From: Spirochaetia bacterium
Lineage (GTDB): Bacteria; Spirochaetota; Spirochaetia; SZUA-6; Bin103
NCBI GenBank assembly: GCA_965208065.1
Contig: OZ242313.1
Coordinates: 619,396-683,395 of the forward strand
DNA: 64,000 nt
Reading direction: 5' to 3'
Under the pieces are notes generated by a model that made no database searches, had not been told where the DNA came from, and saw only the letters and a list, made by a program, of their open reading frames with translations. Shown here in pieces: positions 10,426 through 17,779 of this stretch (the first letter of the stretch is position 1; the number at the start of each line of letters is the position of its first letter). Both the position numbers and the translations under genes were made by a program.

Positions 10426-11388
10426 CTACGGGATAAGCAGCAGCTTGCCCGCGGTGGTGCGGCCCGCCAGGTCGGCATGCGCCGCGGCCGCCTCCGCGAG
10501 CGGGTACTCGCGGTGAACCAGCACGTCCAACTCGCCGGCCGCAACCCAGGAGAACAGTTCCGCACTGCGCGCCGCGAGTTCGCCGGGCTCGGCAATGTAG
10601 TCGGCCAGCGACGGGCGGGTGAGATACAGCGAGCCGCCCTGCGACAGCATCGCCGGCTCGAAGCCGGTCACCGGACCGCTCGACTGGCCGTAGCTCACCA
10701 GCACGCCGCGCCTGCGCAGCGCCGCCAGGGAGCCGCCGAAGGTGGCCTGGCCAACCGAATCGTACACCACGTCGACGCCGGCGCCGCCGGTGAGCCGCCG
10801 CACCTCATCGGGTACGTCGCCGTAGTCGAGCACGTGGTCGGCGCCGAGCGCGCGCACCATGGCCGCCTTCGCCGGCGTGGAGCAGGTCGCCAGCACGGTG
10901 GCGCCGCGGTGCCGCGCGGCCTGCACCAGGAGGCGGCCGACGCCGCCCGCGGCTGCATGCACCAGCACCGCGGAGCCGGGCGCAAGCGGCGCGCTCGCGG
11001 TAACCAGGTAGTGGGCCGTGAGCCCCTGCAGAAACACCGCCGCCGCCAGCCTGGTGGACAGCCCGGCGGGCAGCTCGACCACCATGCGCGCCGGCACCAC
11101 GGCGTACTCGGCGTAGGCGCCCACGGTCATGGCGTAGGCCACGCGCATGCCCGGGGACACGGCGGTCACGTCGCTGCCGACGGCATCGATCACCCCGGCA
11201 CCCTCCATGCCGGGAGTGAATGGCGTGGCCACGGGGTAGAGACCGGTGCGCTGGTAGATGTCGATGAAGTTGACACCCGCCGCTTCAATCTTGACGCGGA
11301 CTTCCCGCGCGCCCGGTTCGGGTAAGGGTAGGTCGGTCATCCGGAGGACCTCGGGCCCGCCGGGCCCGGCAACTTGTACCGCCCGCAT
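10426..11388 (-). CDS. qor: NADPH:quinone oxidoreductase (zeta-crystallin / MDR superfamily).
   Basis: MRAVQV...GVNFIDIYQRTGLYP...AAGGVGRLLVQ... is typical of Qor. It lies 3 nt downstream of nrdB. Confidence 0.8.
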   Translation of the reverse strand: MRAVQVAGPGGPEVLRMTDLPLPEPGAREVRVKIEAAGVNFIDIYQRTGLYPVATPFTPGMEGAGVIDAVGSDVTAVSPGMRVAYAMTVGAYAEYAVVPARMVVELPAGLSTRLAAAVFLQGLTAHYLVTASAPLAPGSAVLVHAAAGGVGRLLVQAARHRGATVLATCSTPAKAAMVRALGADHVLDYGDVPDEVRRLTGGAGVDVVYDSVGQATFGGSLAALRRRGVLVSYGQSSGPVTGFEPAMLSQGGSLYLTRPSLADYIAEPGELAARSAELFSWVAAGELDVLVHREYPLAEAAAAHADLAGRTTAGKLLLIP

Positions 11389-11391
11389 CGG

Positions 11392-12405
11392 CTAGTCCCA
11401 GTCGAGGGCGCCGGCCGGCTGGTACTCGGTTACCCGGGTCTCGAAAAAGTTCTTCTCTTTGTTCAGGTCCATCGTGTGGCTCATCCAAGGGAACGGGTTG
11501 TCGGTTTCGTACTGGCGCGGCAGGCCGATCCGTTCCAACCGCCGGTCGGCGACGTACTCGACGTAGCGGGCAAACTGCACGGCGTTGATGCCGAGCAGCC
11601 CGTCGGGGCAGGCGTCGTGGGCGTACGCCTGTTCGAACTGCACGCCGCGCCGTACCAGGTCCACCACCTCGGCCTGCAGCTCCGCCGACCAGGCGGCCGG
11701 ATAATCCTGCCTGATGGTGTTGATCAACTCGCAGCCGAACGCCAGGTGCACGCTTTCGTCGCGCATGATGAACTCGAACTGCTCGCCGATGCCGATCATC
11801 TTGCCCTGCCGCTTGAGCGCCAGCATCATGGCGAACCCGGCGTAGAAGAAGATCCCTTCCATGATCACGTAGTAGCCGATCAGGTCACGCAGGAAGCGCT
11901 GCACGTTGGTGGTGCGGTCGGCCGCGGCCGGCGCGATCAGGTCAAAGGACGGATCGAAAATCGACCGGGTGATTTCGATCACGAACTGGTCCTTCTCGCG
12001 GATGCTCGGAATGGTGTGGTACATGGTGTAGATCCGGTCCGGATCGAGGCCGAGCGAATCGCTGCAGTAAATGAAGGTGTCGGTGTGGATCGCCTCCTCG
12101 AACGCCTGCCGCAGCAGGTACTGGCGGCACTCGGGGTTGGTGACGTGGCGATACACCGCGAGCACGATGTTGTTGGCGGTCAGCGACTCGGCGGTGGAGA
12201 AGAAGCCGAGATTCCACAGAATAAGACGCCGCTCGGTGTCGCTGAGCACGTCCGGGGCTTTCCACTGCTCCACGTCCTTCTGCATCGACACCTCTTCCGG
12301 GACCCAGTTGTTGGCTACCCCATTCTTGTAGAACTCGCGTGCCCACGGGTAGGTAAGCGGGAGAATCTTGTTGGGGTCGGTGGCGGAGGCGCCGATGATC
12401 GGCAT
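11392..12405 (-). CDS. nrdB: Class I ribonucleotide reductase small (beta) subunit.
   Basis: Ferritin-like diiron/tyrosyl-radical motifs (EAIHTDTF, FYAGFA, DESVHLAFG). It lies immediately downstream of nrdA. Confidence 0.9.
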   Translation of the reverse strand: MPIIGASATDPNKILPLTYPWAREFYKNGVANNWVPEEVSMQKDVEQWKAPDVLSDTERRLILWNLGFFSTAESLTANNIVLAVYRHVTNPECRQYLLRQAFEEAIHTDTFIYCSDSLGLDPDRIYTMYHTIPSIREKDQFVIEITRSIFDPSFDLIAPAAADRTTNVQRFLRDLIGYYVIMEGIFFYAGFAMMLALKRQGKMIGIGEQFEFIMRDESVHLAFGCELINTIRQDYPAAWSAELQAEVVDLVRRGVQFEQAYAHDACPDGLLGINAVQFARYVEYVADRRLERIGLPRQYETDNPFPWMSHTMDLNKEKNFFETRVTEYQPAGALDWD

Positions 12406-12408
12406 GGT

Positions 12409-15357
12409 TTACTGACACACCTCGCACGACTCGTCGTCGAGCTGGCAGGCCTGCGGGGTCGGGAGGGCGTCGTGCAGCGCTTCGGGATCGGCCACGGCCG
12501 TGGCCGCGGCGCCCGCGGCTGTCGCCGCCGGGGAACTCACGGCCGCGGCGTTCACGGCCGGGGTCGTCACGGCCGGGGCGCTCACCGCCGGCGCGGCGCC
12601 GTTGGCGGCGCCGTTCCGGGCCGGGTCCGGCGCGGGTGCGGCGCCGGGGCTGTCCGCGGTGCCGTTGCCGCGCCGCTGCGTGTAGCCGTAGGCGGAGCCG
12701 AGGGTCGCCTTCTCCACCTGCGACGCGGCCATGGTGCGCAGGTAGTAGGTGGTCTTCAGGCCGAGTTGCCACGCCAGCTGGTAGATGTCCGACAGCAGCC
12801 GGCCCGACGTTCCCTGCATGAATATGTTCAGCGACTGGCTCTGATCGAGCCACTTGCCGCGCACCGCCGCCAGCCGCAGGTACCACAGCGGATCGATTTC
12901 GAACGCCACCTTGTACTTGCGGCGCAGGTGCGGGGACAGGTCGTGCATCTGCTGCAGGCTGCCGTCGTGGAACTTCAGTTCGTCGGCGGTTTTCTGGTTC
13001 CAGTGCCCGGCGGTGCGCAGGTCCGCCACCAAGTAGGGATTGATCACCGTGAACTCGCCGCTGATGTTGCTCTTCACGTAGATGTTCTTGTAGGGCGGCT
13101 CGAAACTCGGGAAGCAGCCGGCGATGTTGGAGATGGTCGCGGTCGGTGCGATCGCCATGGTGTTGGAGTTGCGCATGCCGTGGCGCGCCACGTGCTCGCG
13201 GACCGGCGTCCAGTCCAGCGCGCCGCCGGCCTCCACCGCCAGCGCCATGCCGCGCTCCTCCTCCAGCAGTGCCAGGGTGTCGTGCGGCAGCACGCCGCGG
13301 TCCCACTTGGAGCCGGGGTAACTTTCGTAGGTGCCGCGTTCGGCGGCGAGCCGCGAGGAGGCAAGAATGGCGTGGTAGGAGATCGACTCCATCATGCGGT
13401 CCACCACGGTCATGGTGTCGGGGTCCTCGTACGCCAGGTCGAGCTTGAACAGAGCATCCTGCAGGCCCATCAATCCGAGGCCGACCGGCCGATGGCGCAG
13501 GTTGGAGTGCTTCGCCTCCTCGGTGGGGTAGAAGTTGATGTCGATCACGTTGTCGAGCATGCGCATCGCCACGGTTACCGTGTCGGCGAGCAACTCCTCG
13601 TCCACCCCGTCGGCGCTGACGTGGTTCTCCAGGTTCACCGAGCCGAGGTTGCATACCGCGGTCTCGCTATCGGAGGTGTTGAGCGTGATCTCCGTGCACA
13701 GGTTGGAGCTGTTCACCACCCCGGCGTGGTCCTGCGGGCTGCGGATGTTGCACGGGTCCTTGAAGGTAATCCAGGGATGCCCGGTCTCGAACAGCATGCT
13801 GAGCATCTTGCGCCACAGCTTGACGGCCGGCAGCGTGCGGTGGCGGCGCAGCTTGCCGGCGCGCGCCTGTTCTTCGTAATGGCGGTAGCGCTGTTCGAAC
13901 TTGCGGCCGTAGAGCGCGTGCAGGTCGGGGGTCTCGTCGGGCGAGAACAGGGTCCACTCCTGGCCGGCGAGCACCCGCTTCATGAACAGGTCCGGGATCC
14001 AGTTGGCGGTGTTCATGTCGTGGGTGCGGCGGCGCTCGTCGCCGGTGTTGCGGCGCAGATCCAGGAAGTCCTCGATGTCGAGGTGCCAGGTTTCCAGGTA
14101 GGCGCAGGTGGCGCCGCGGCGCTTGCCGCTGCGGTTGATGGCCAGCGTCACGTCGCTGGCGATCTTCAGGAACGGCACCACGCCCTGGCTCTCCACGCCG
14201 GTGCTGCGGATGGCGGCGCCGGTGGCGCGGATGTTGCTCCAGTCGTTGCCGAGCCCGCCCGACCACTTGGACAGCTGCGCATTGTCGGAGAACGCCTTGA
14301 AGATGCTGCCGAGGTCGTCGCCGACCGTGGTCAGGTAGCAGGAACTGAGTTGCGGGTGGTTGGTGCCGGCGTGGAACAGGGTCGGCGTCGAGGGTACGAA
14401 GCGCAGGCTCGAGATCAGCTCGTAGAACCGGATTGCCTGCGCCTCGCGATCCTGCTCCGGCAGTGCGATGCCCATGGCGACGCGCATCCAGAACGCCTGC
14501 GGCGTTTCGATGACCGCACCGTCGACGCGGGTGAAGTAGCGCTCGTACAGCGTCTGCACGCCCATGTACAGGAACTGGCCGTCGCGTTCCGGCCGCAGCG
14601 CGGCGCTCAGGCGCTCGAAGTCGTAGTCGAGCAGCCGCTTGTCGAAGGTGCCGGCGTTCACGCCGCGGCGGATGCCGTCGCGGAACGCGCTCCGGTAGTC
14701 GGCGTCGAGGGTGTCGGCGGCCAGCGGGGCGCCGATCACCTCCTTGTAGATGCGGCGCAGGAACAGGCGCGCGGCGAGCCGGCTGTAGGCGGGATCGCGC
14801 TCAATGAAGGAAGCGCTCGCGAGCAGCAGCGCCTTCTCGATTTCGGTGCTCGCGATGCCGTCGTAGATGTTGCGGATGGTCTCGCGCGCCACCTCGTCGA
14901 CGGCGATCGACGCGGCCGGGGCGGCGCCCTGCGCGGCGTCGCGGATGGTGCGCGTCAGCTTGGCGATGTCGAACAGCACCACCCGCCCATCGCGGGCGCG
15001 TACGGTGAGCTTGCCGAGCAGCGACTGCTCGGCGACCTGGTCCTTGTGCTGTTCGCGCGCCTGCTGGCGCTCGGCCCGGTACAGGATGTACGCCTTGGCG
15101 ATCTCGTACATTCCGTTCTTGACCAGGTGTTTCTCGACGATGTCCTGGATGTTCTCGACGTTGGGGTACAGTTCGGTGAAGCGGGTATCTATTTCGCCCA
15201 CCACGGCCGCCACCACCGAGCTCAGGGTGCCGTTCTCGAGCGTGCCCCACTGGTCAGGGGGAGCGGTAGCCCGTATGGCTTTCGATATCGCGACACGGAT
15301 CCGGCCGCCGTCAAAGTCGACGACCTCTCCGGTCCGCTTGATGACCATCTGGCTCAC
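12409..15357 (-). CDS. nrdA: Class Ia ribonucleotide reductase large (alpha) subunit, with an N-terminal ATP-cone and a C-terminal Cys pair.
   Basis: ATP-cone VIKRTGEVVDFDGGRIRVAISKA, catalytic core (NLCTEI, SNL, ...), and a C-terminal CQLDDESCEVCQ. An unusual Ala/Pro/Val/Thr-rich linker of about 75 aa precedes the C-terminal Cys pair. Confidence 0.9.
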   Translation of the reverse strand: MSQMVIKRTGEVVDFDGGRIRVAISKAIRATAPPDQWGTLENGTLSSVVAAVVGEIDTRFTELYPNVENIQDIVEKHLVKNGMYEIAKAYILYRAERQQAREQHKDQVAEQSLLGKLTVRARDGRVVLFDIAKLTRTIRDAAQGAAPAASIAVDEVARETIRNIYDGIASTEIEKALLLASASFIERDPAYSRLAARLFLRRIYKEVIGAPLAADTLDADYRSAFRDGIRRGVNAGTFDKRLLDYDFERLSAALRPERDGQFLYMGVQTLYERYFTRVDGAVIETPQAFWMRVAMGIALPEQDREAQAIRFYELISSLRFVPSTPTLFHAGTNHPQLSSCYLTTVGDDLGSIFKAFSDNAQLSKWSGGLGNDWSNIRATGAAIRSTGVESQGVVPFLKIASDVTLAINRSGKRRGATCAYLETWHLDIEDFLDLRRNTGDERRRTHDMNTANWIPDLFMKRVLAGQEWTLFSPDETPDLHALYGRKFEQRYRHYEEQARAGKLRRHRTLPAVKLWRKMLSMLFETGHPWITFKDPCNIRSPQDHAGVVNSSNLCTEITLNTSDSETAVCNLGSVNLENHVSADGVDEELLADTVTVAMRMLDNVIDINFYPTEEAKHSNLRHRPVGLGLMGLQDALFKLDLAYEDPDTMTVVDRMMESISYHAILASSRLAAERGTYESYPGSKWDRGVLPHDTLALLEEERGMALAVEAGGALDWTPVREHVARHGMRNSNTMAIAPTATISNIAGCFPSFEPPYKNIYVKSNISGEFTVINPYLVADLRTAGHWNQKTADELKFHDGSLQQMHDLSPHLRRKYKVAFEIDPLWYLRLAAVRGKWLDQSQSLNIFMQGTSGRLLSDIYQLAWQLGLKTTYYLRTMAASQVEKATLGSAYGYTQRRGNGTADSPGAAPAPDPARNGAANGAAPAVSAPAVTTPAVNAAAVSSPAATAAGAAATAVADPEALHDALPTPQACQLDDESCEVCQ
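12537..12596. repeat. 15-bp tandem repeat, about 4 copies (tcacggccg[c/g]gg...), inside the 3' end of nrdA. It encodes part of the low-complexity C-terminal linker.
   Basis: Read directly: tcacggccgcggcgt / tcacggccggggtcg / tcacggccggggcgc / tcaccgccggcgcgg. Confidence 0.6.
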
Positions 15358-15358
15358 C

Positions 15359-15619
15359 TCAGGTACCCCCCCGCCGTAGCGCGTGTTCTGGAAAGAGCTC
15401 CCGCTGACCTACGGCGGTGTCCGGGGCCGACCGGGCGGCGGCATCTGGTTCTATGACCGGCAGATACGTGCCATCGTCGATGGCGCGTTCCACGTCGGCC
15501 TCGATAAGTTGTATGAGCCGTCGAGTCATGGAGGTACCGCGCAGCGCGCACACCGCGTGAAACTGGTCGCGCAGCCGTATTGGCACCTGTCTGAGGTTTA
15601 TGGCCCCGTAGGCGCGCAT
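15359..15619 (-). CDS. Small ribbon-helix-helix (CopG/ParD/Arc-like) DNA-binding protein encoded immediately upstream of nrdA.
   Basis: An AAGGAG RBS is correctly spaced before the ATG at 15619. The translation INLRQVPIRLRDQFHAVCALRGTSMTRRLIQLIEADVERAI fits an RHH beta-strand plus two helices. Its stop lies 1 nt before the nrdA ATG. Confidence 0.45.
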   Translation of the reverse strand: MRAYGAINLRQVPIRLRDQFHAVCALRGTSMTRRLIQLIEADVERAIDDGTYLPVIEPDAAARSAPDTAVGQRELFPEHALRRGGT

Positions 15620-15680
15620 TTCGCTCCTTCCTGTTTTCCTGCCGCGGACGCCGTTACTACAAGCGCCTGAACCGACAGGG

Positions 15681-15721
15681 TATCAACCGTATCACTTGTA
15701 TTATCGGTAGTCAATGTGATT
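15681..15721. promoter_or_regulatory. Imperfect inverted/direct repeat (TATCAAC cg TATCACTTG ...N13... CAATGTGAT) in the nrd upstream region. Candidate operator.
   Basis: Read from the sequence about 60-100 nt upstream of the RHH ORF start. It does not match the NrdR-box consensus well. Confidence 0.25.
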
Positions 15722-15834
15722 CATCCTGAGCGGACGCGGAAATTTTCCCCTGGCTTGCTGCCTGTCCTCACCCGGCTCTGCGTTCCAACCCAGGCGCCGT
15801 TGCTTCAACGTAACTATTGGTATGAAAATATTTA

Positions 15835-16755
15835 CTAACCGTCCACCAGATCGGGATGGCCGGCGATGCAGACGAGGTTGCCGGCGCGGTGCAGGAATTG
15901 CTCGGCGGCCAGGTCGGCCAGCACCGCGGCGAGCCGGTCGTCGGGGCAGTGCTGCTGCAGTTCGGCGGTGGTCAGGCAGTGGTGCTCGGTGAGCAGGCGC
16001 AGCACGCGCCCGCGCAACTCGCGGCGGGAGCCGGCGAACGGGGTCTGGCGGCTGTAGTGGGCGCTGCGCCGGTTCGGGTTGCCGGGAAGGCGGCCGAGTG
16101 CGGCTCCCCAGTCCATCAGCGCGTGGTACCAGTGCCGCGGCTGGCGGCGGTCGACGGTGCGCGCCACCAGCGGTAGCAGCGCCGCGTCCGGGACGGTGGC
16201 GGCGGCGGGGAAGAACTGGTGCAGGAACACGCGCCGGATGTTGGTCTCGATGAACGCCGCCGGTTGCGCGAAGGCAAACGCCAGCAGGGCGCCGGCGGTG
16301 GACGGCCCTACCCCCGGCAGGCGCAGCAGGGCGTCGCGGTCGGGCGGCAGGGCGCCGCCGTGTTCGCCCACCAGGACGCCGGCGGCGCGCTGCAGCGCCA
16401 GCGCGCGGCGGTTGTAGCCGAGGCCGCTCCACCGTTCCAGGACGGCGGCCAGCGGCGCAGCGGCCAGGGTGGCGGGGTCCGGGAAGCGGGCGAGGAAGCG
16501 CGCGTAGTGGTCGAGCACGCGCGTAACCTGGGTCTGCTGCAGCATTACCTCCGATACCAGGATGGCGTACGGATCGCCGGTTTCGCGCCACGGCAGGTGC
16601 CGGTAGTGGCGCCGCCCGTGCCAGCAGACCCGGCGCCGGAACCGTACCAGCGCGGTTTCGTCGAGCACGACCGGGGCGGCGTGCCGCTTGCTCGCGGCAA
16701 GCGGCGGGCCGTAGTTTGAGTCGGCGCGGTCAGCGCGCGCCACGGTTGTACCCAT
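15835..16755 (-). CDS. HhH-GPD superfamily base-excision DNA glycosylase, MutY/Nth-like. No C-terminal 4Fe-4S Cys cluster is evident.
   Basis: YAILVSEVMLQQTQV...LPGVGPSTAGALLAFAF are HhH-GPD motifs. The start is uncertain, because the ORF overlaps the divergent ypdA start. Confidence 0.6.
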   Translation of the reverse strand: MGTTVARADRADSNYGPPLAASKRHAAPVVLDETALVRFRRRVCWHGRRHYRHLPWRETGDPYAILVSEVMLQQTQVTRVLDHYARFLARFPDPATLAAAPLAAVLERWSGLGYNRRALALQRAAGVLVGEHGGALPPDRDALLRLPGVGPSTAGALLAFAFAQPAAFIETNIRRVFLHQFFPAAATVPDAALLPLVARTVDRRQPRHWYHALMDWGAALGRLPGNPNRRSAHYSRQTPFAGSRRELRGRVLRLLTEHHCLTTAELQQHCPDDRLAAVLADLAAEQFLHRAGNLVCIAGHPDLVDG

Positions 16756-17779
16756 GGACATTGGACAGTTGATCATCATCGGCGCCGGCCCGGCCGGACT
16801 GGCGTGCTCGATCGCCGCGACCGGTGCCGGTCTCGATCACCTGGTCCTCGAGAAGGGCGCCATCGCCAACACCATCTACCGGTTCCCGGACGACATGACC
16901 TTCTTTTCCACCCCCGACAAGCTGGCCATCGGCGGCGTGCCGTTTACCTGTCCGGACAAGAAACCGTCGCGCCGCCAGACGGTCGCCTACTACCGCGACG
17001 TCGCCGTCCACTACGGCCTGCCGGTGCGAACCGGGCATACCGTTACCGCGCTGCGCCGGACGCCGGGCGGCTTTGCCGTAACCGCGGAGCAGCACGGCGC
17101 ACCCTACGCGCTCGCGGCGCACTCGGTGGTGGTGTCGACCGGCTTCTTCGATACGCCGGTGCGCCTCGGCATTCCGGGCGAGGATCTGCCCAAGTGCTCG
17201 CACTACTTCCATGACGGCCACCCCTATTATGGCCAGCGGGTGGCGGTCGTGGGAGGCGGCAATTCGGCCGTGGAGACCGCGCTCGATCTAATGCGCGCCG
17301 GTGCCCGGGTGACGCTGATTCACCGATCCGCCGAGTTGCGCCGCGGGGTCAAGTACTGGGTGCGTCCGGAACTGGAGAACCGCGTCGCCGACGGCGCCAT
17401 CGAGGCGCGCTTCAACACCGCGGTGGAGTCCGTGGAGCCGGACGCCGTCGTGGTGCGCGGCCCGGACGGCCGCGAGCGGCTGGCCAACGACGCGGTGCTG
17501 TTTCAGATCGGCTACCTGCCGACCGTCACCCTGCTGCGCCAGCTCGGCATCGGCAGCGACCCGGAAACCGCCGTGCCGGAGCACGATCCGGACACGCTGG
17601 AGACCGCGGTGCCGGGGCTGTTCGTGTGTGGCGCGCTGCTCGCCGGCAACATTGCCGGCAGCGTGTTCATCGAAGATGGCCGCGACCACGGCGAGCGCAT
17701 CGTCGCTATCATCCGGCGCCGCCTGCAGGAGCGCCGCCACGACAGCCGGGACAGCAGCCGGGATCGCGCCGCCGGCTGA
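16754..17779 (+). CDS. ypdA: YpdA-family pyridine nucleotide-disulfide oxidoreductase (putative bacillithiol disulfide reductase).
   Basis: GAGPAG FAD motif, PDDMTFFSTPDKLAIGG (characteristic of YpdA) and a second GGGNSA NAD(P) motif. Confidence 0.7.
   Translation: MDIGQLIIIGAGPAGLACSIAATGAGLDHLVLEKGAIANTIYRFPDDMTFFSTPDKLAIGGVPFTCPDKKPSRRQTVAYYRDVAVHYGLPVRTGHTVTALRRTPGGFAVTAEQHGAPYALAAHSVVVSTGFFDTPVRLGIPGEDLPKCSHYFHDGHPYYGQRVAVVGGGNSAVETALDLMRAGARVTLIHRSAELRRGVKYWVRPELENRVADGAIEARFNTAVESVEPDAVVVRGPDGRERLANDAVLFQIGYLPTVTLLRQLGIGSDPETAVPEHDPDTLETAVPGLFVCGALLAGNIAGSVFIEDGRDHGERIVAIIRRRLQERRHDSRDSSRDRAAG

Follow-up and report, generated by a model that had tools for sequence, protein, structure and literature searches.

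The window analysed here (the whole stretch of DNA, 64 kb) carries on its minus strand a predicted operon, which starts with a small gene for a ribbon-helix-helix (RHH) protein and continues with nrdA and nrdB of a class I ribonucleotide reductase (RNR) and an alcohol dehydrogenase (ADH)-like gene. The features of the locus and the basis of each assignment were as follows.

10426..11388, minus strand: zinc-type alcohol dehydrogenase/quinone reductase-like gene (Pfam ADH_zinc_N, ADH_N)
11392..12405, minus strand: nrdB, assigned to class Ic (R2c) by alignment to PDB 1syy
12409..15357, minus strand: nrdA, class I RNR large subunit with two ATP-cone stretches (Pfam)
15359..15619, minus strand: RHH gene, 86 aa, first gene of the operon (ORF and translation)
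15386..15409, minus strand: conserved short linear motif GQRELFPE in the disordered tail (alignment A1)
15470..15619, minus strand: predicted RHH DNA-binding domain, residues 1-50 (AF2, Foldseek, profile matches)
15624..15629, minus strand: Shine-Dalgarno sequence AAGGAG of the RHH gene (sequence; a GGAGG-type site is kept in relatives)
15680..15703, minus strand: candidate operator, three direct repeats with a 9-bp period (cross-lineage conservation)
15686..15694, minus strand: extended -10, TGa + TACGGT (assigned by homology)
15709..15714, minus strand: -35 TTGACT of the operon promoter (conserved across 11 lineages)

The nrdA product was identified by its Pfam domains (Ribonuc_red_lgC, 1.5e-184; ATP-cone; Ribonuc_red_lgN). 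An earlier, sequence-only reading had let the upstream ORF end 1 nt before an nrdA ATG; the distance was correct, but the start codon is a GTG (15357-15355), and the first in-frame ATG of the window gene occurs at 15348, 9 nt beyond it. In relatives, an ATG occupies the homologous nrdA start (ATGAGCCAGATGGTC...). The translational abutment proposed at the same time turned out to be peculiar to the window: in relatives, 18-109 nt separate the RHH stop from the first position of the NrdA tblastn match, and this match begins 9 nt into the gene. Where the gap is 67-109 nt, nrdA could be served by a separate promoter.

The best PDB match of NrdB was the R2c protein of C. trachomatis (1syy, E=3e-129). 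Class Ic is defined by an R2 in which Phe replaces the radical Tyr and Glu replaces the first Asp ligand (PMC4009431). Phe and Glu were found at exactly these positions in NrdB, and the alignment to 1syy paired EEAIHTDTF with EEAVHTHTF and showed FFSTAESL to be conserved; the C-terminal tail reads ...PAGALDWD. Judged by these residues, the reductase is class Ic with a Chlamydia-type R2c, and the class Ia label given to it before was wrong. The ADH-like gene starts 3 nt past nrdB, is syntenic in most relatives, and is the probable last gene of the operon. In all loci the RHH gene was flanked by an HhH-GPD glycosylase gene upstream and nrdA downstream, and no toxin fold, toxin gene or partition partner gene was found near it in this conserved neighbourhood.

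The RHH gene reads from the ATG at 15619-15617 to the TGA at 15361-15359, with AAGGAG (15629-15624) separated from the ATG by 4 nt; the 86-codon ORF with its strong ribosome-binding site was therefore present at 15619..15359 as originally described. About 35 homologous protein clusters were found for its product, with identities of 53-100%. The gene lay directly 5' of nrdA-nrdB in 12 Spirochaetia lineages (MAGs and metagenome contigs, GC 36-72%): this arrangement was seen in 9/9 genome loci and likewise on the metagenome contigs, including those of a marine lineage with 36% GC. The conservation upstream of nrdA on which the initial proposal depended was thus found in relatives. Codon-position differences among the 12 lineages were 0.17/0.10/0.49 for positions 1/2/3, and because they sit mainly at third positions, the codon pattern indicates a real RHH gene under purifying selection. 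Its GC3 was 0.70, versus 0.89-0.93 in the neighbouring genes, and a low GC3 in a family confined to one clade would fit a gene domesticated from a mobile element, with a marginal function.

Cluster look-ups for the family returned only the annotation 'hypothetical protein', no curated family or paper describing the RHH protein was found, and the viral-contig scan yielded no family member; the nearest relatives outside the family were located on phage-like contigs. In the marine lineage, the called RHH ATG preceded the -10, and the true start must follow it; the gene calls of this lineage were corrected in this way, since the candidate operator had been translated as an N-terminal extension. 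In some strains the nrd leader was a hot spot of insertions and duplications. Rare rearranged loci carried a tail-less RHH gene followed by a small ORF whose RL(D/N)WD motifs are the same as at the C-terminus of NrdB; a homology search with this ORF gave only 3 clusters, too few to test mimicry of the NrdB tail.

Scans of the RHH protein against Pfam, NCBIfam and PHROG gave nothing above threshold, and family members obtained only sub-threshold matches to ParG and RHH_10 in these scans. Homology appeared at the profile level: profile A4, built from the RHH family and its distant relatives, matched ParG (7.6e-5), 56B (0.009) and Mnt (0.025) in the PDB, hhalign of the family with ParG gave a probability of 67%, and the 55 distant profile matches included Pfam RHH_10 (25), ParG (13) and FitA-like proteins (13). 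With a deeper alignment, AF2 modelled residues 1-54 at a pLDDT of 94.3 as a strand followed by two helices. The layout comprised an extended stretch of residues 1-13 with the strand GAINLRQVP, helix 14-26, a turn G28-T29-S30 and helix 31-49; the strand was extended and unpaired in the monomer, as expected of an obligate dimer. In this superfamily, the paired strands of such a dimer enter the major groove of a specific operator. The best Foldseek matches of this domain model were nearly all RHH proteins (VapB12, Arc, DinJ, PutA, FitA, RelB, ParD), and VapB12 was superposed with a target-normalised TM of 0.87 and an rmsd of 0.9 A. On the basis of models and profiles, the protein is predicted to have the ribbon-helix-helix fold of the MetJ/Arc superfamily, and the strand plus two helices anticipated from the bare sequence were borne out. 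The full-length AF2 monomer from a shallow alignment reached a pLDDT of only 58; the Foldseek matches of this model (e.g. xylose isomerase) were meaningless, and the domain-only model was used instead. A match to retinol dehydratase in the PDB profile search was judged spurious, as it involved a sulfotransferase fold and a short stretch only.

Residues 56-86 had a pLDDT <50, and the tail was disordered apart from the motif. In alignment A1 the RHH domain and the tail motif were conserved and the linker was variable. The family consensus of the motif was G-Q-[GR]-[QE]-L-[FW]-P-[DE], in which Q72 and P77 were kept in at least 90% of the sequences and L75 and F/W76 in almost as many. Members of the window's subclade have further residues after the motif. 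The arrangement Q72-x-x-L75-[F/W]76-P77 also fits the MutL-type pattern Qxx[L/I]xP. In the beta-clamp motif Q-phi-x-L-F, positions 1, 4 and 5 matter most for binding (bioRxiv 10.64898/2026.05.27.728225). Q72, L75 and F/W76 fall on positions 1, 4 and 5, and position 2 holds G or R in place of an aliphatic residue.

The promoter of the operon was recognised by comparison of upstream regions. In 11 lineages the -35 followed the consensus TTGMCN/GTGACA at 17-18 bp 5' of the -10, the TGATAC(N)(N)T element was invariant in position, and the geometry -35/17-18 bp/TGnTACnnT was the same. A generic promoter and terminator scan of the window called no promoter, the -10 hexamer TACGGT being too weak, and the promoter scan called the homologous promoter in lineages L010 and L008. 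In every lineage examined, the conserved promoter lay 5' of the conserved RHH coding core; as the promoter of the window also lies 5' of the RHH ATG, the ORF falls within the predicted transcript.

The candidate operator spans the promoter spacer, the -10 and about +1. Its copies on the minus strand are TAATAC (15703-15698), TGATAC (15694-15689) and TGATAC (15685-15680), separated by AAG and GGT. The conserved core is TGATAC-N3-TGATAC, and a third copy is confined to the window's subclade. The first two copies were perfect or had at most one mismatch in 10/11 lineages, including the one with 36% GC, and were degenerate in L013; variants of the first copy were TGAGAC (L008) and TGCGAC (L013). 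The repeat region formed a conserved island amid otherwise unalignable intergenic DNA, and no other repeated element was conserved upstream of the RHH gene. Allowing at most one mismatch, the 64-kb window has TGATACNNNTGATAC at this site and nowhere else; with at most two, 0.84 occurrences were expected in the window and 3 were found, two of them at this site. Across about 200 kb of related loci, all its occurrences lay upstream of the RHH gene. The bases of a promoter spacer are not recognised specifically by RNA polymerase, so conservation of the spacer copy implies another binding factor; the middle TGATAC is the extended -10, and part of the conservation therefore reflects promoter function rather than an operator. 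The sequence-only reading had noticed an operator-like repeat, and the element and its letters at 15681-15720 were confirmed, but its description as an inverted repeat was replaced by the conserved direct repeat: the pair ATCACTTG-N13-CAATGTGAT was kept in no relative and was rejected as the operator; its arm CAATGTGAT, which overlaps the -35, is missing from relatives. An automated repeat search picked out another inverted pair, a weak one, and missed the direct repeat, whose units are below the minimum length of the search.

Presence and absence of the gene and the repeat went together. Both were present in 11/11 lineages with upstream sequence, and both were absent from L017, a syntenic relative whose NrdA is 69% identical, and from the outgroups L018 and L019. 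The class Ic operons of L018 and L019 carried tandem NrdR-like palindromes exactly 32 bp apart around TTGAC. Known NrdR boxes are tandem 16-bp palindromes (acaCwAtATaTwGtg) placed integral helical turns apart in the nrd promoter (PMC4009431). In the leaders of the RHH clade no NrdR boxes were found, the best match to the consensus in each region having 5-7 mismatches and being the TGATAC element itself, which is single and non-palindromic in contrast to the palindromic, tandem NrdR boxes. The contrast with NrdR control drawn in the initial reading was therefore apt. A tblastn search with an E. coli NrdR query found no match in the 64-kb window or the loci and was uninformative.

Taken together, the RHH fold, the conservation, the co-occurring operator-like element and the upstream promoter make an autoregulator of nrdAB the best reading of this gene; from them we infer binding of the repeat by the RHH protein, repression, co-transcription with nrdAB and a partner for the tail. 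The protein would be a small transcription factor encoded by the first cistron of RHH-nrdA-nrdB(-ADH), whose dimers would bind the 9-bp-spaced direct repeats TGATAC-N3-TGATAC(-N3-TGATAC) cooperatively. As these repeats are predicted to sit on the spacer, extended -10 and start region of a sigma-70-type promoter (TTGACT, 17 bp, TGaTACGGT), bound RHH protein would shut out RNA polymerase, resulting in negative autoregulation of the regulator together with the class Ic RNR. The module would occupy the place of the tandem NrdR boxes in other class Ic operons and presumably do the same job. The disordered tail (G-Q-x-x-L-[F/W]-P) would be the likely input, through docking of a partner which alters operator occupancy. 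We regard an autoregulated RHH-nrdAB repressor, with a tail that docks a partner such as the beta clamp or NrdA, as moderately probable, and the protein is probably a so far undescribed regulator of DNA-precursor synthesis, specific to this lineage. A more specific version, in which the protein is a replication-coupled RNR repressor with a clamp-binding tail (or, as a variant, an NrdB-tail mimic sensing free NrdA), is tentative and fairly unlikely. If it were true, clamps loaded at replication would capture, displace or destabilise the repressor, and dNTP synthesis would be switched on when forks are active.

Two other readings keep the protein functional and were weighed against autoregulation of nrdAB. 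The RHH protein might bind DNA elsewhere or at a site that escaped recognition here, with the TGATAC repeat being an extended -10 plus the site of another regulator; one copy is indeed a TG-extended -10, and L008 and L013 have imperfect repeats. Against this stand the joint presence of gene and repeat in 11 lineages and their joint absence from L017 and the two outgroups, the preservation of the spacer copy from 36% to 72% GC, and the lack of any other conserved repeated element in the region, and we consider this reading unlikely. It is also rather improbable that the protein acts mainly at the protein level, as an antitoxin-like factor whose tail binds NrdA, possibly in the cleft that receives the C-terminal tail of NrdB, with DNA binding being autoregulation tuned by the complex (conditional-cooperativity-like) or with RNR assembly modulated directly. 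The gene stands in the 'antitoxin position', near or abutting nrdA, the fold resembles that of the RHH antitoxins VapB, DinJ, RelB, FitA and ParD, the aromatic/acidic motif L-[W/F]-P-[D/E] of the disordered tail is loosely like the NrdB tail A-L-[D/E]-W-D of the same genomes, and the rearranged loci place the NrdB-identical RL(D/N)WD motifs directly after a tail-less RHH gene. However, the registers differ (L-D-W-D in NrdB, L-W-P-D in the RHH tail), and NrdB has nothing that corresponds to the invariant Q72 and P77. In class I RNR the R2 peptide docks via its C-terminal end, whereas the RHH motif is not C-terminal in the window's subclade.

The remaining two readings deny the protein a regulatory role. 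That it is a domesticated or selfish phage or plasmid remnant, hitch-hiking in the nrd leader without any regulation, would agree with its nearest non-family relatives on phage-like contigs, its GC3 of 0.70 next to about 0.9 in the neighbours, and a leader prone to insertions and duplications in some strains. Purifying selection on the gene, a position and orientation fixed across lineages spanning 36-72% GC, the lack of a toxin or partition partner nearby and the absence of the family from viral contigs all speak against it, and this reading is very unlikely. A leader peptide or attenuator, in which translation of the ORF and not its product controls nrdA, had been offered as the alternative to an autoregulator, and the 1-nt spacing of RHH stop and nrdA start in the window would suit it. 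The abutment is not conserved (gaps of 18-109 nt), and the ORF is under purifying selection and encodes a confidently predicted fold with conserved residues. In addition, the terminator scan of the window found none, the leader RNA folded no better than shuffled sequences (z = -0.41), and Rfam gave no match in 15000-16200; a riboswitch or attenuator was dropped on these grounds. The conservation pattern effectively refutes the leader-peptide reading, to which we attach almost no credence.

Control of RNR sets the dNTP supply and hence replication fidelity. In bacteria this control has been attributed almost wholly to NrdR and a few global regulators, and one lineage seems to head its class Ic nrdAB with an unrelated repressor of the phage/plasmid RHH type and its own operator. 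The module is compact, with one 86-aa protein and one 24-bp site, L017 represents a natural knockout relative, and the partner of the conserved linear motif would reveal the signal that replaces the ATP/dATP sensing of NrdR. The RHH proteins of these loci make up a family outside all curated libraries; it is small and restricted to one clade, and its whole mechanism is what we infer.

The predicted fold is that of the RHH repressors ParG of TP228, omega of pSM19035, Arc/Mnt of P22, CopG and MetJ. Like them, the protein is small and encoded by the first gene of the operon that it presumably controls, and its candidate operator consists of short, close repeats overlapping the promoter. Omega recognises 7-bp WATCACW heptads in direct or inverted orientation, the sites of ParG are 8-bp-spaced repeats and those of MetJ are 8-bp metboxes, whereas the repeat period here is 9 bp. 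The TGATAC unit reads GTATCA(C) on the other strand; the half-site of E. coli NikR is TCATAC. Unlike these repressors, the nrd-linked protein falls below the threshold of every curated model of these families, presumably controls a chromosomal housekeeping enzyme instead of a plasmid or phage function, and carries a conserved C-terminal linear motif without a ParA- or toxin-type partner gene.

With NrdR, the RHH module shares the regulatory position and the presumed logic of a repressor site over the nrd promoter, the tandem NrdR-like boxes of the outgroup class Ic operons lying at the equivalent place, 32 bp apart. The two differ in protein and in site: NrdR combines a zinc ribbon with an ATP-cone and binds 16-bp palindromes, whereas the RHH protein has a disordered tail without a nucleotide-sensing domain and a direct hexamer repeat at its locus, and it is encoded in cis, as the first operon gene, in one clade only. 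Type II RHH antitoxins (VapB, RelB, DinJ, FitA, ParD) provided the best structural matches to the domain; they likewise have an N-terminal RHH domain and a disordered C-terminal tail, which binds the partner in antitoxins, their genes lie immediately upstream of the next gene and sometimes overlap it, and autoregulation at a promoter-overlapping operator is typical of them. Here, unlike in those systems, the downstream gene is nrdA and there is no adjacent toxin gene. Among beta-clamp binders (pentapeptide Q-phi-x-L-F or Q-phi-x-L-x-L; MutL QEMIVP), the motif often lies in a disordered terminal tail, as it does here, and the RHH motif matches positions 1, 4 and 5 but has G or R and not an aliphatic residue at position 2; clamp binding is a candidate function. 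To our knowledge, no transcription factor has a clamp-binding tail of this kind. In fission yeast, the RNR inhibitor Spd1 is removed in a PCNA-dependent manner; the clamp-binding tail, if true, would be the bacterial counterpart of this removal, and it would represent an NrdR-independent solution in one spirochaete clade.

The RHH gene was identified in the window as an 86-codon ORF coding for a ribbon-helix-helix (RHH) protein, and the ORF, its translation and the neighbouring genes were located as follows.

15619 (ATG) to 15361-15359 (TGA), minus strand: RHH ORF, 86 codons
15629-15624, minus strand: ribosome-binding site AAGGAG of the RHH gene, 4 nt 5' of its ATG
15357 (GTG start), minus strand: nrdA, 982 codons, starting one base past the RHH stop
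11392-12405, minus strand: nrdB, adjoining nrdA on its 3' side
10426-11388, minus strand: zinc-ADH-like or quinone-reductase-like gene, 3 nt past nrdB
15835-16779, minus strand: HhH-GPD glycosylase gene, 5' of the RHH ORF on the same strand
16754-17779, plus strand: thioredoxin-reductase-like flavoprotein oxidoreductase gene, divergent, beyond HhH-GPD

The intergenic stretch 5' of the RHH ORF was 215 nt long with 52% GC, compared to 69% for the window, and the GC3 of the RHH gene was 0.70, with 0.89-0.93 in the neighbouring genes. An AT-rich island (15790-15840, 41% GC vs 69%) was also found where the HhH-GPD gene ends, and it contained an imperfect palindrome at 15819-15840; of the relatives, just the closest ones, L007 and L001, had a TACCAnnAGTTACG stretch resembling this island.

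In the protein search, which covered 5.8 billion proteins, 35 clusters of the RHH gene were detected at 53-100% identity, none carrying a Pfam domain and all called "hypothetical protein" where the source gave names. The N-terminal 47 residues were almost invariant (GAINLRQVP..LRDQFHALCALRGTSMTRRLIELIEADVERA) in the alignment, followed by a variable linker and a conserved C-terminal motif, G-Q-[GR]-[QE]-L-[FW]-P-[DE]. Over a 43-codon core in 12 lineages, pairs differed on average by 0.17, 0.10 and 0.49 per site at the first, second and third codon positions, a pattern indicating purifying selection on the protein. The clusters and this selection established the ORF as a genuine gene. The family is small, since the HMM search of 1.84 billion representatives returned only four of the family proper (E <= 1e-25).

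The genome scan revealed nine loci, all from MAGs assigned to Spirochaetia or Spirochaetaceae, with 66-72% GC, and the order divergent oxidoreductase, HhH-GPD, RHH, nrdA, nrdB and (ADH) was kept in all nine. The arrangement was unchanged in more diverged members on metagenome contigs, including one marine lineage of only 36% GC, so the position 5' of nrdA proposed for checking was conserved. The close junction with nrdA was not. The sequence-only reading had the RHH ORF end 1 nt before an nrdA ATG; the spacing was correct for the window, but the codon was GTG 15357, the positional homologue of the relatives' nrdA ATG (ATGAGCCAGATGGTC...), and the earliest in-frame ATG was at 15348. In relatives the RHH stop was followed by a gap of 18-109 nt, counted up to where the NrdA tblastn match begins, 9 nt inside nrdA. 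The abutment is thus peculiar to the window, where the RHH ORF was extended across the nrdA ribosome-binding site (...RRGGT*).

No curated library model (Pfam, NCBIfam, PHROG) reached the RHH protein. Profile positions 5-47 were matched by about 180 more short proteins (E 1e-14 to 1e-3), and 55 of these, when scanned, gave 25 Pfam RHH_10, 13 ParG, 13 FitA-like RHH and 3 RHH_5 assignments. Against solved structures, the profile of the family with its distant relatives matched ParG (7.6e-5), 56B (0.009), Mnt (0.025) and also antitoxins; hhalign of the family alone with ParG gave 67% probability. Residues 1-54 were modelled by AF2 with a deeper alignment at pLDDT 94.3, showing an extended N-terminal segment, a helix at 14-26, a G-T-S turn and a helix at 31-49, while residues 56-86 were disordered in the full-length model. 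The best Foldseek matches were nearly all RHH proteins (VapB12, Arc, DinJ, PutA, FitA, RelB, ParD), with a target-normalised TM of 0.87 and an rmsd of 0.9 A for VapB12; the E-values were poor, which is normal for a query of just 54 residues. The fold proposed from sequence was confirmed by distant profile matches, AF2 and Foldseek.

When the leaders of nine lineages were aligned, a single conserved island was found in otherwise unalignable DNA. It comprised a -35 hexamer (TTGMCN or GTGACA), a 17-18-bp spacer and TGa + TAC(N)(N)T, a TG-extended -10, with identical geometry across 11 lineages. A generic promoter scan called it in L010 (TTGACC-18-TACAGT, TG) and L008 (GTGACA-18-TACAGT, TG), and did not call the window promoter, whose -10 is TACGGT. 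The promoter also held a direct repeat, TGATAC-N3-TGATAC, whose first copy fell in the spacer and whose second coincided with the extended -10; in the subclade of the window, the start site was covered by a third copy.

15714-15709, minus strand: -35, TTGACT
15703-15698, minus strand: repeat copy TAATAC
15694-15689, minus strand: repeat copy TGATAC
15691-15686, minus strand: -10, TACGGT
15685-15680, minus strand: repeat copy TGATAC

Transcription is predicted to start near 15679, giving a leader of about 60 nt. The operator-like element of the earlier reading survived as this conserved direct repeat, but its inverted arm overlapped the -35 and was not conserved. At <=1 mismatch the repeat 15-mer had no second site in the window, and in about 200 kb of loci it was confined to RHH-gene upstream regions. 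An extra single GTGATAC (CAGTGATACCGGGTC) was seen in the RHH-nrdA spacer of L002 (6262-6300) and in no other locus. The repeat was intact in the 36%-GC marine lineage, where gene callers translate it as an N-terminal extension, "MIQLIQ...". On these contigs (L010 3527-3560, L011, L012) the called RHH ATG lay inside the candidate operator, with ATGATACAACTGATACAG translated; since the predicted -10 falls within the extension, the true start must be downstream, and the "long" members of 110-112 aa (P0033-P0035) are explained by gene calls starting inside the operator.

Three outgroup loci were compared. L017 had the same synteny (RecD2-like, aldo-keto reductase, divergent oxidoreductase, HhH-GPD, nrdA, nrdB) and a NrdA of 69% identity, a divergence similar to that of the most distant RHH-bearing locus, L008 (68%), and it contained neither RHH gene nor repeat, its HhH-GPD-nrdA gap being just 85 nt. 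Both were also absent from L018 and L019, of other lineages. These comparisons indicated that gene and repeat travel together. In L018 and L019, a TTGAC hexamer (-35) was instead flanked by a pair of NrdR-box-like palindromes at a distance of exactly 32 bp.

L018, 2770-2830: NrdR-like boxes CCACACCATCTTGTGG and GTGCTACATCTTGTAT
L019, 2370-2425: NrdR-like boxes TTGCATGATGTTGTGG and CCACAACATGTTGTAG

These boxes at class Ic nrdAB genes match the tandem arrangement described for NrdR in passages of a 2014 review of RNR regulation (PMC4009431). In RHH-clade leaders, the best match to the NrdR consensus had 5-7 mismatches and coincided with the TGATAC element, which, unlike NrdR boxes, is non-palindromic and single; a NrdR site was therefore rejected there. 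The RHH gene and repeat occupy the place held elsewhere by NrdR boxes.

The reductase had been labelled class Ia. Its NrdB was closest among solved structures to Chlamydia trachomatis R2c (1syy, E=3e-129), with Phe at the radical-tyrosine position (EEAIHTDTF) and Glu replacing Asp as first ligand (FFSTAESL), and by these residues the enzyme is assigned to class Ic (Chlamydia-type Mn/Fe R2c), as defined in passages of the same review (PMC4009431). This R2 type was widespread and highly conserved in the NrdB search; R2c proteins with the labels Acidobacteriota, Dependentiae and even DPANN shared about 74-77% identity with the window NrdB, which is unusually high for conservation across phyla. 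The zinc-ADH and divergent flavoprotein genes both kept their synteny with nrdAB throughout the clade, a hint that the class Ic enzyme has a redox supply of its own.

RNA polymerase contacts at sigma-70 promoters cannot explain a conserved repeat copy in the spacer, which implies a second factor. Cooperative RHH dimers usually target short repeats in tandem, spaced by roughly one turn of the DNA helix (MetJ, ParG, omega, Arc). The best-supported interpretation is that the RHH protein acts as an autoregulated repressor of an RHH-nrdA-nrdB(-ADH) operon: the RHH gene would be co-transcribed with nrdAB, and dimers of the RHH protein would occupy the TGATAC repeats (9-bp spacing) from the promoter spacer through the -10 to the start site, which would keep RNA polymerase out. 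Judging from RHH structures in general, bases are likely read by N8 and R10, the invariant polar residues in the strand. The leader peptide or attenuator offered earlier as an alternative was discarded, because the product is conserved and folded; the leader region had no terminator and no Rfam family, and its RNA fold gave z = -0.41. A toxin-antitoxin module was rejected since a toxin gene is absent.

The tail motif is likely the signal input of the putative RHH repressor, and two candidate functions were considered. As a putative beta-clamp-binding motif, its Q72, L75 and F/W76 would correspond to positions 1, 4 and 5 of Q-phi-x-L-F, which weigh most for binding (bioRxiv 10.64898/2026.05.27.728225), but position 2 is aliphatic in the clamp motif and G or R in the tail. 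If it instead imitates the C-terminal tail of NrdB (A-L-[D/E]-W-D* in RHH-clade genomes), it would dock on NrdA, but the register differs and the RHH motif is not always C-terminal.

A few strains carried an insertion of 1.4-1.8 kb in the nrd leader (L014 5150-6960, L015, L016, L022 3780-5892), in the order promoter/operator copy, truncated RHH, 118/119-aa ORF, full-length RHH, nrdA. The truncated RHH was cut after codon 47 (68 aa, tail gone) and overlapped by the start of the 118/119-aa ORF. L022 also had a second copy of the promoter/operator plus, on the opposite strand, a 97-aa paralogue, and in L014 a fragment of the RHH gene was still present behind the original promoter.

L022 4100-4459, plus strand: insertion small ORF
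L014 6200-6556, plus strand: insertion small ORF
L022 5114-5407, minus strand: insertion small ORF

This small-ORF family formed only 3 clusters among 5.8 billion proteins. Its members had one or two RL(D/N)WD motifs, at the extreme C-terminus in two versions and there identical to the R1-docking tail of clade NrdB (...AGALDWD*), and also clamp-motif-like QQLEFQF or GQLDLGF. Their coding status was uncertain (GC3 0.71), yet two paralogues aligned at 38% identity (E=2e-9). The product is possibly a NrdB-tail mimic encoded within the nrd leader.

No member of the RHH family was found in IMG/VR viral contigs, and the closest non-family relatives of the RHH domain were on phage-like contigs; taken with the low GC3 of the gene, this suggests that a mobile-element repressor was domesticated.

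Full-text literature searches found no description of an RHH/CopG regulator of ribonucleotide reductase or nrd genes, and the passages of the 2014 review (PMC4009431) that cover NrdR do not mention an RHH protein. An autoregulatory RHH repressor is itself a known kind of regulator; the proposed role and the tail motif are new, and the family is confined to one clade.
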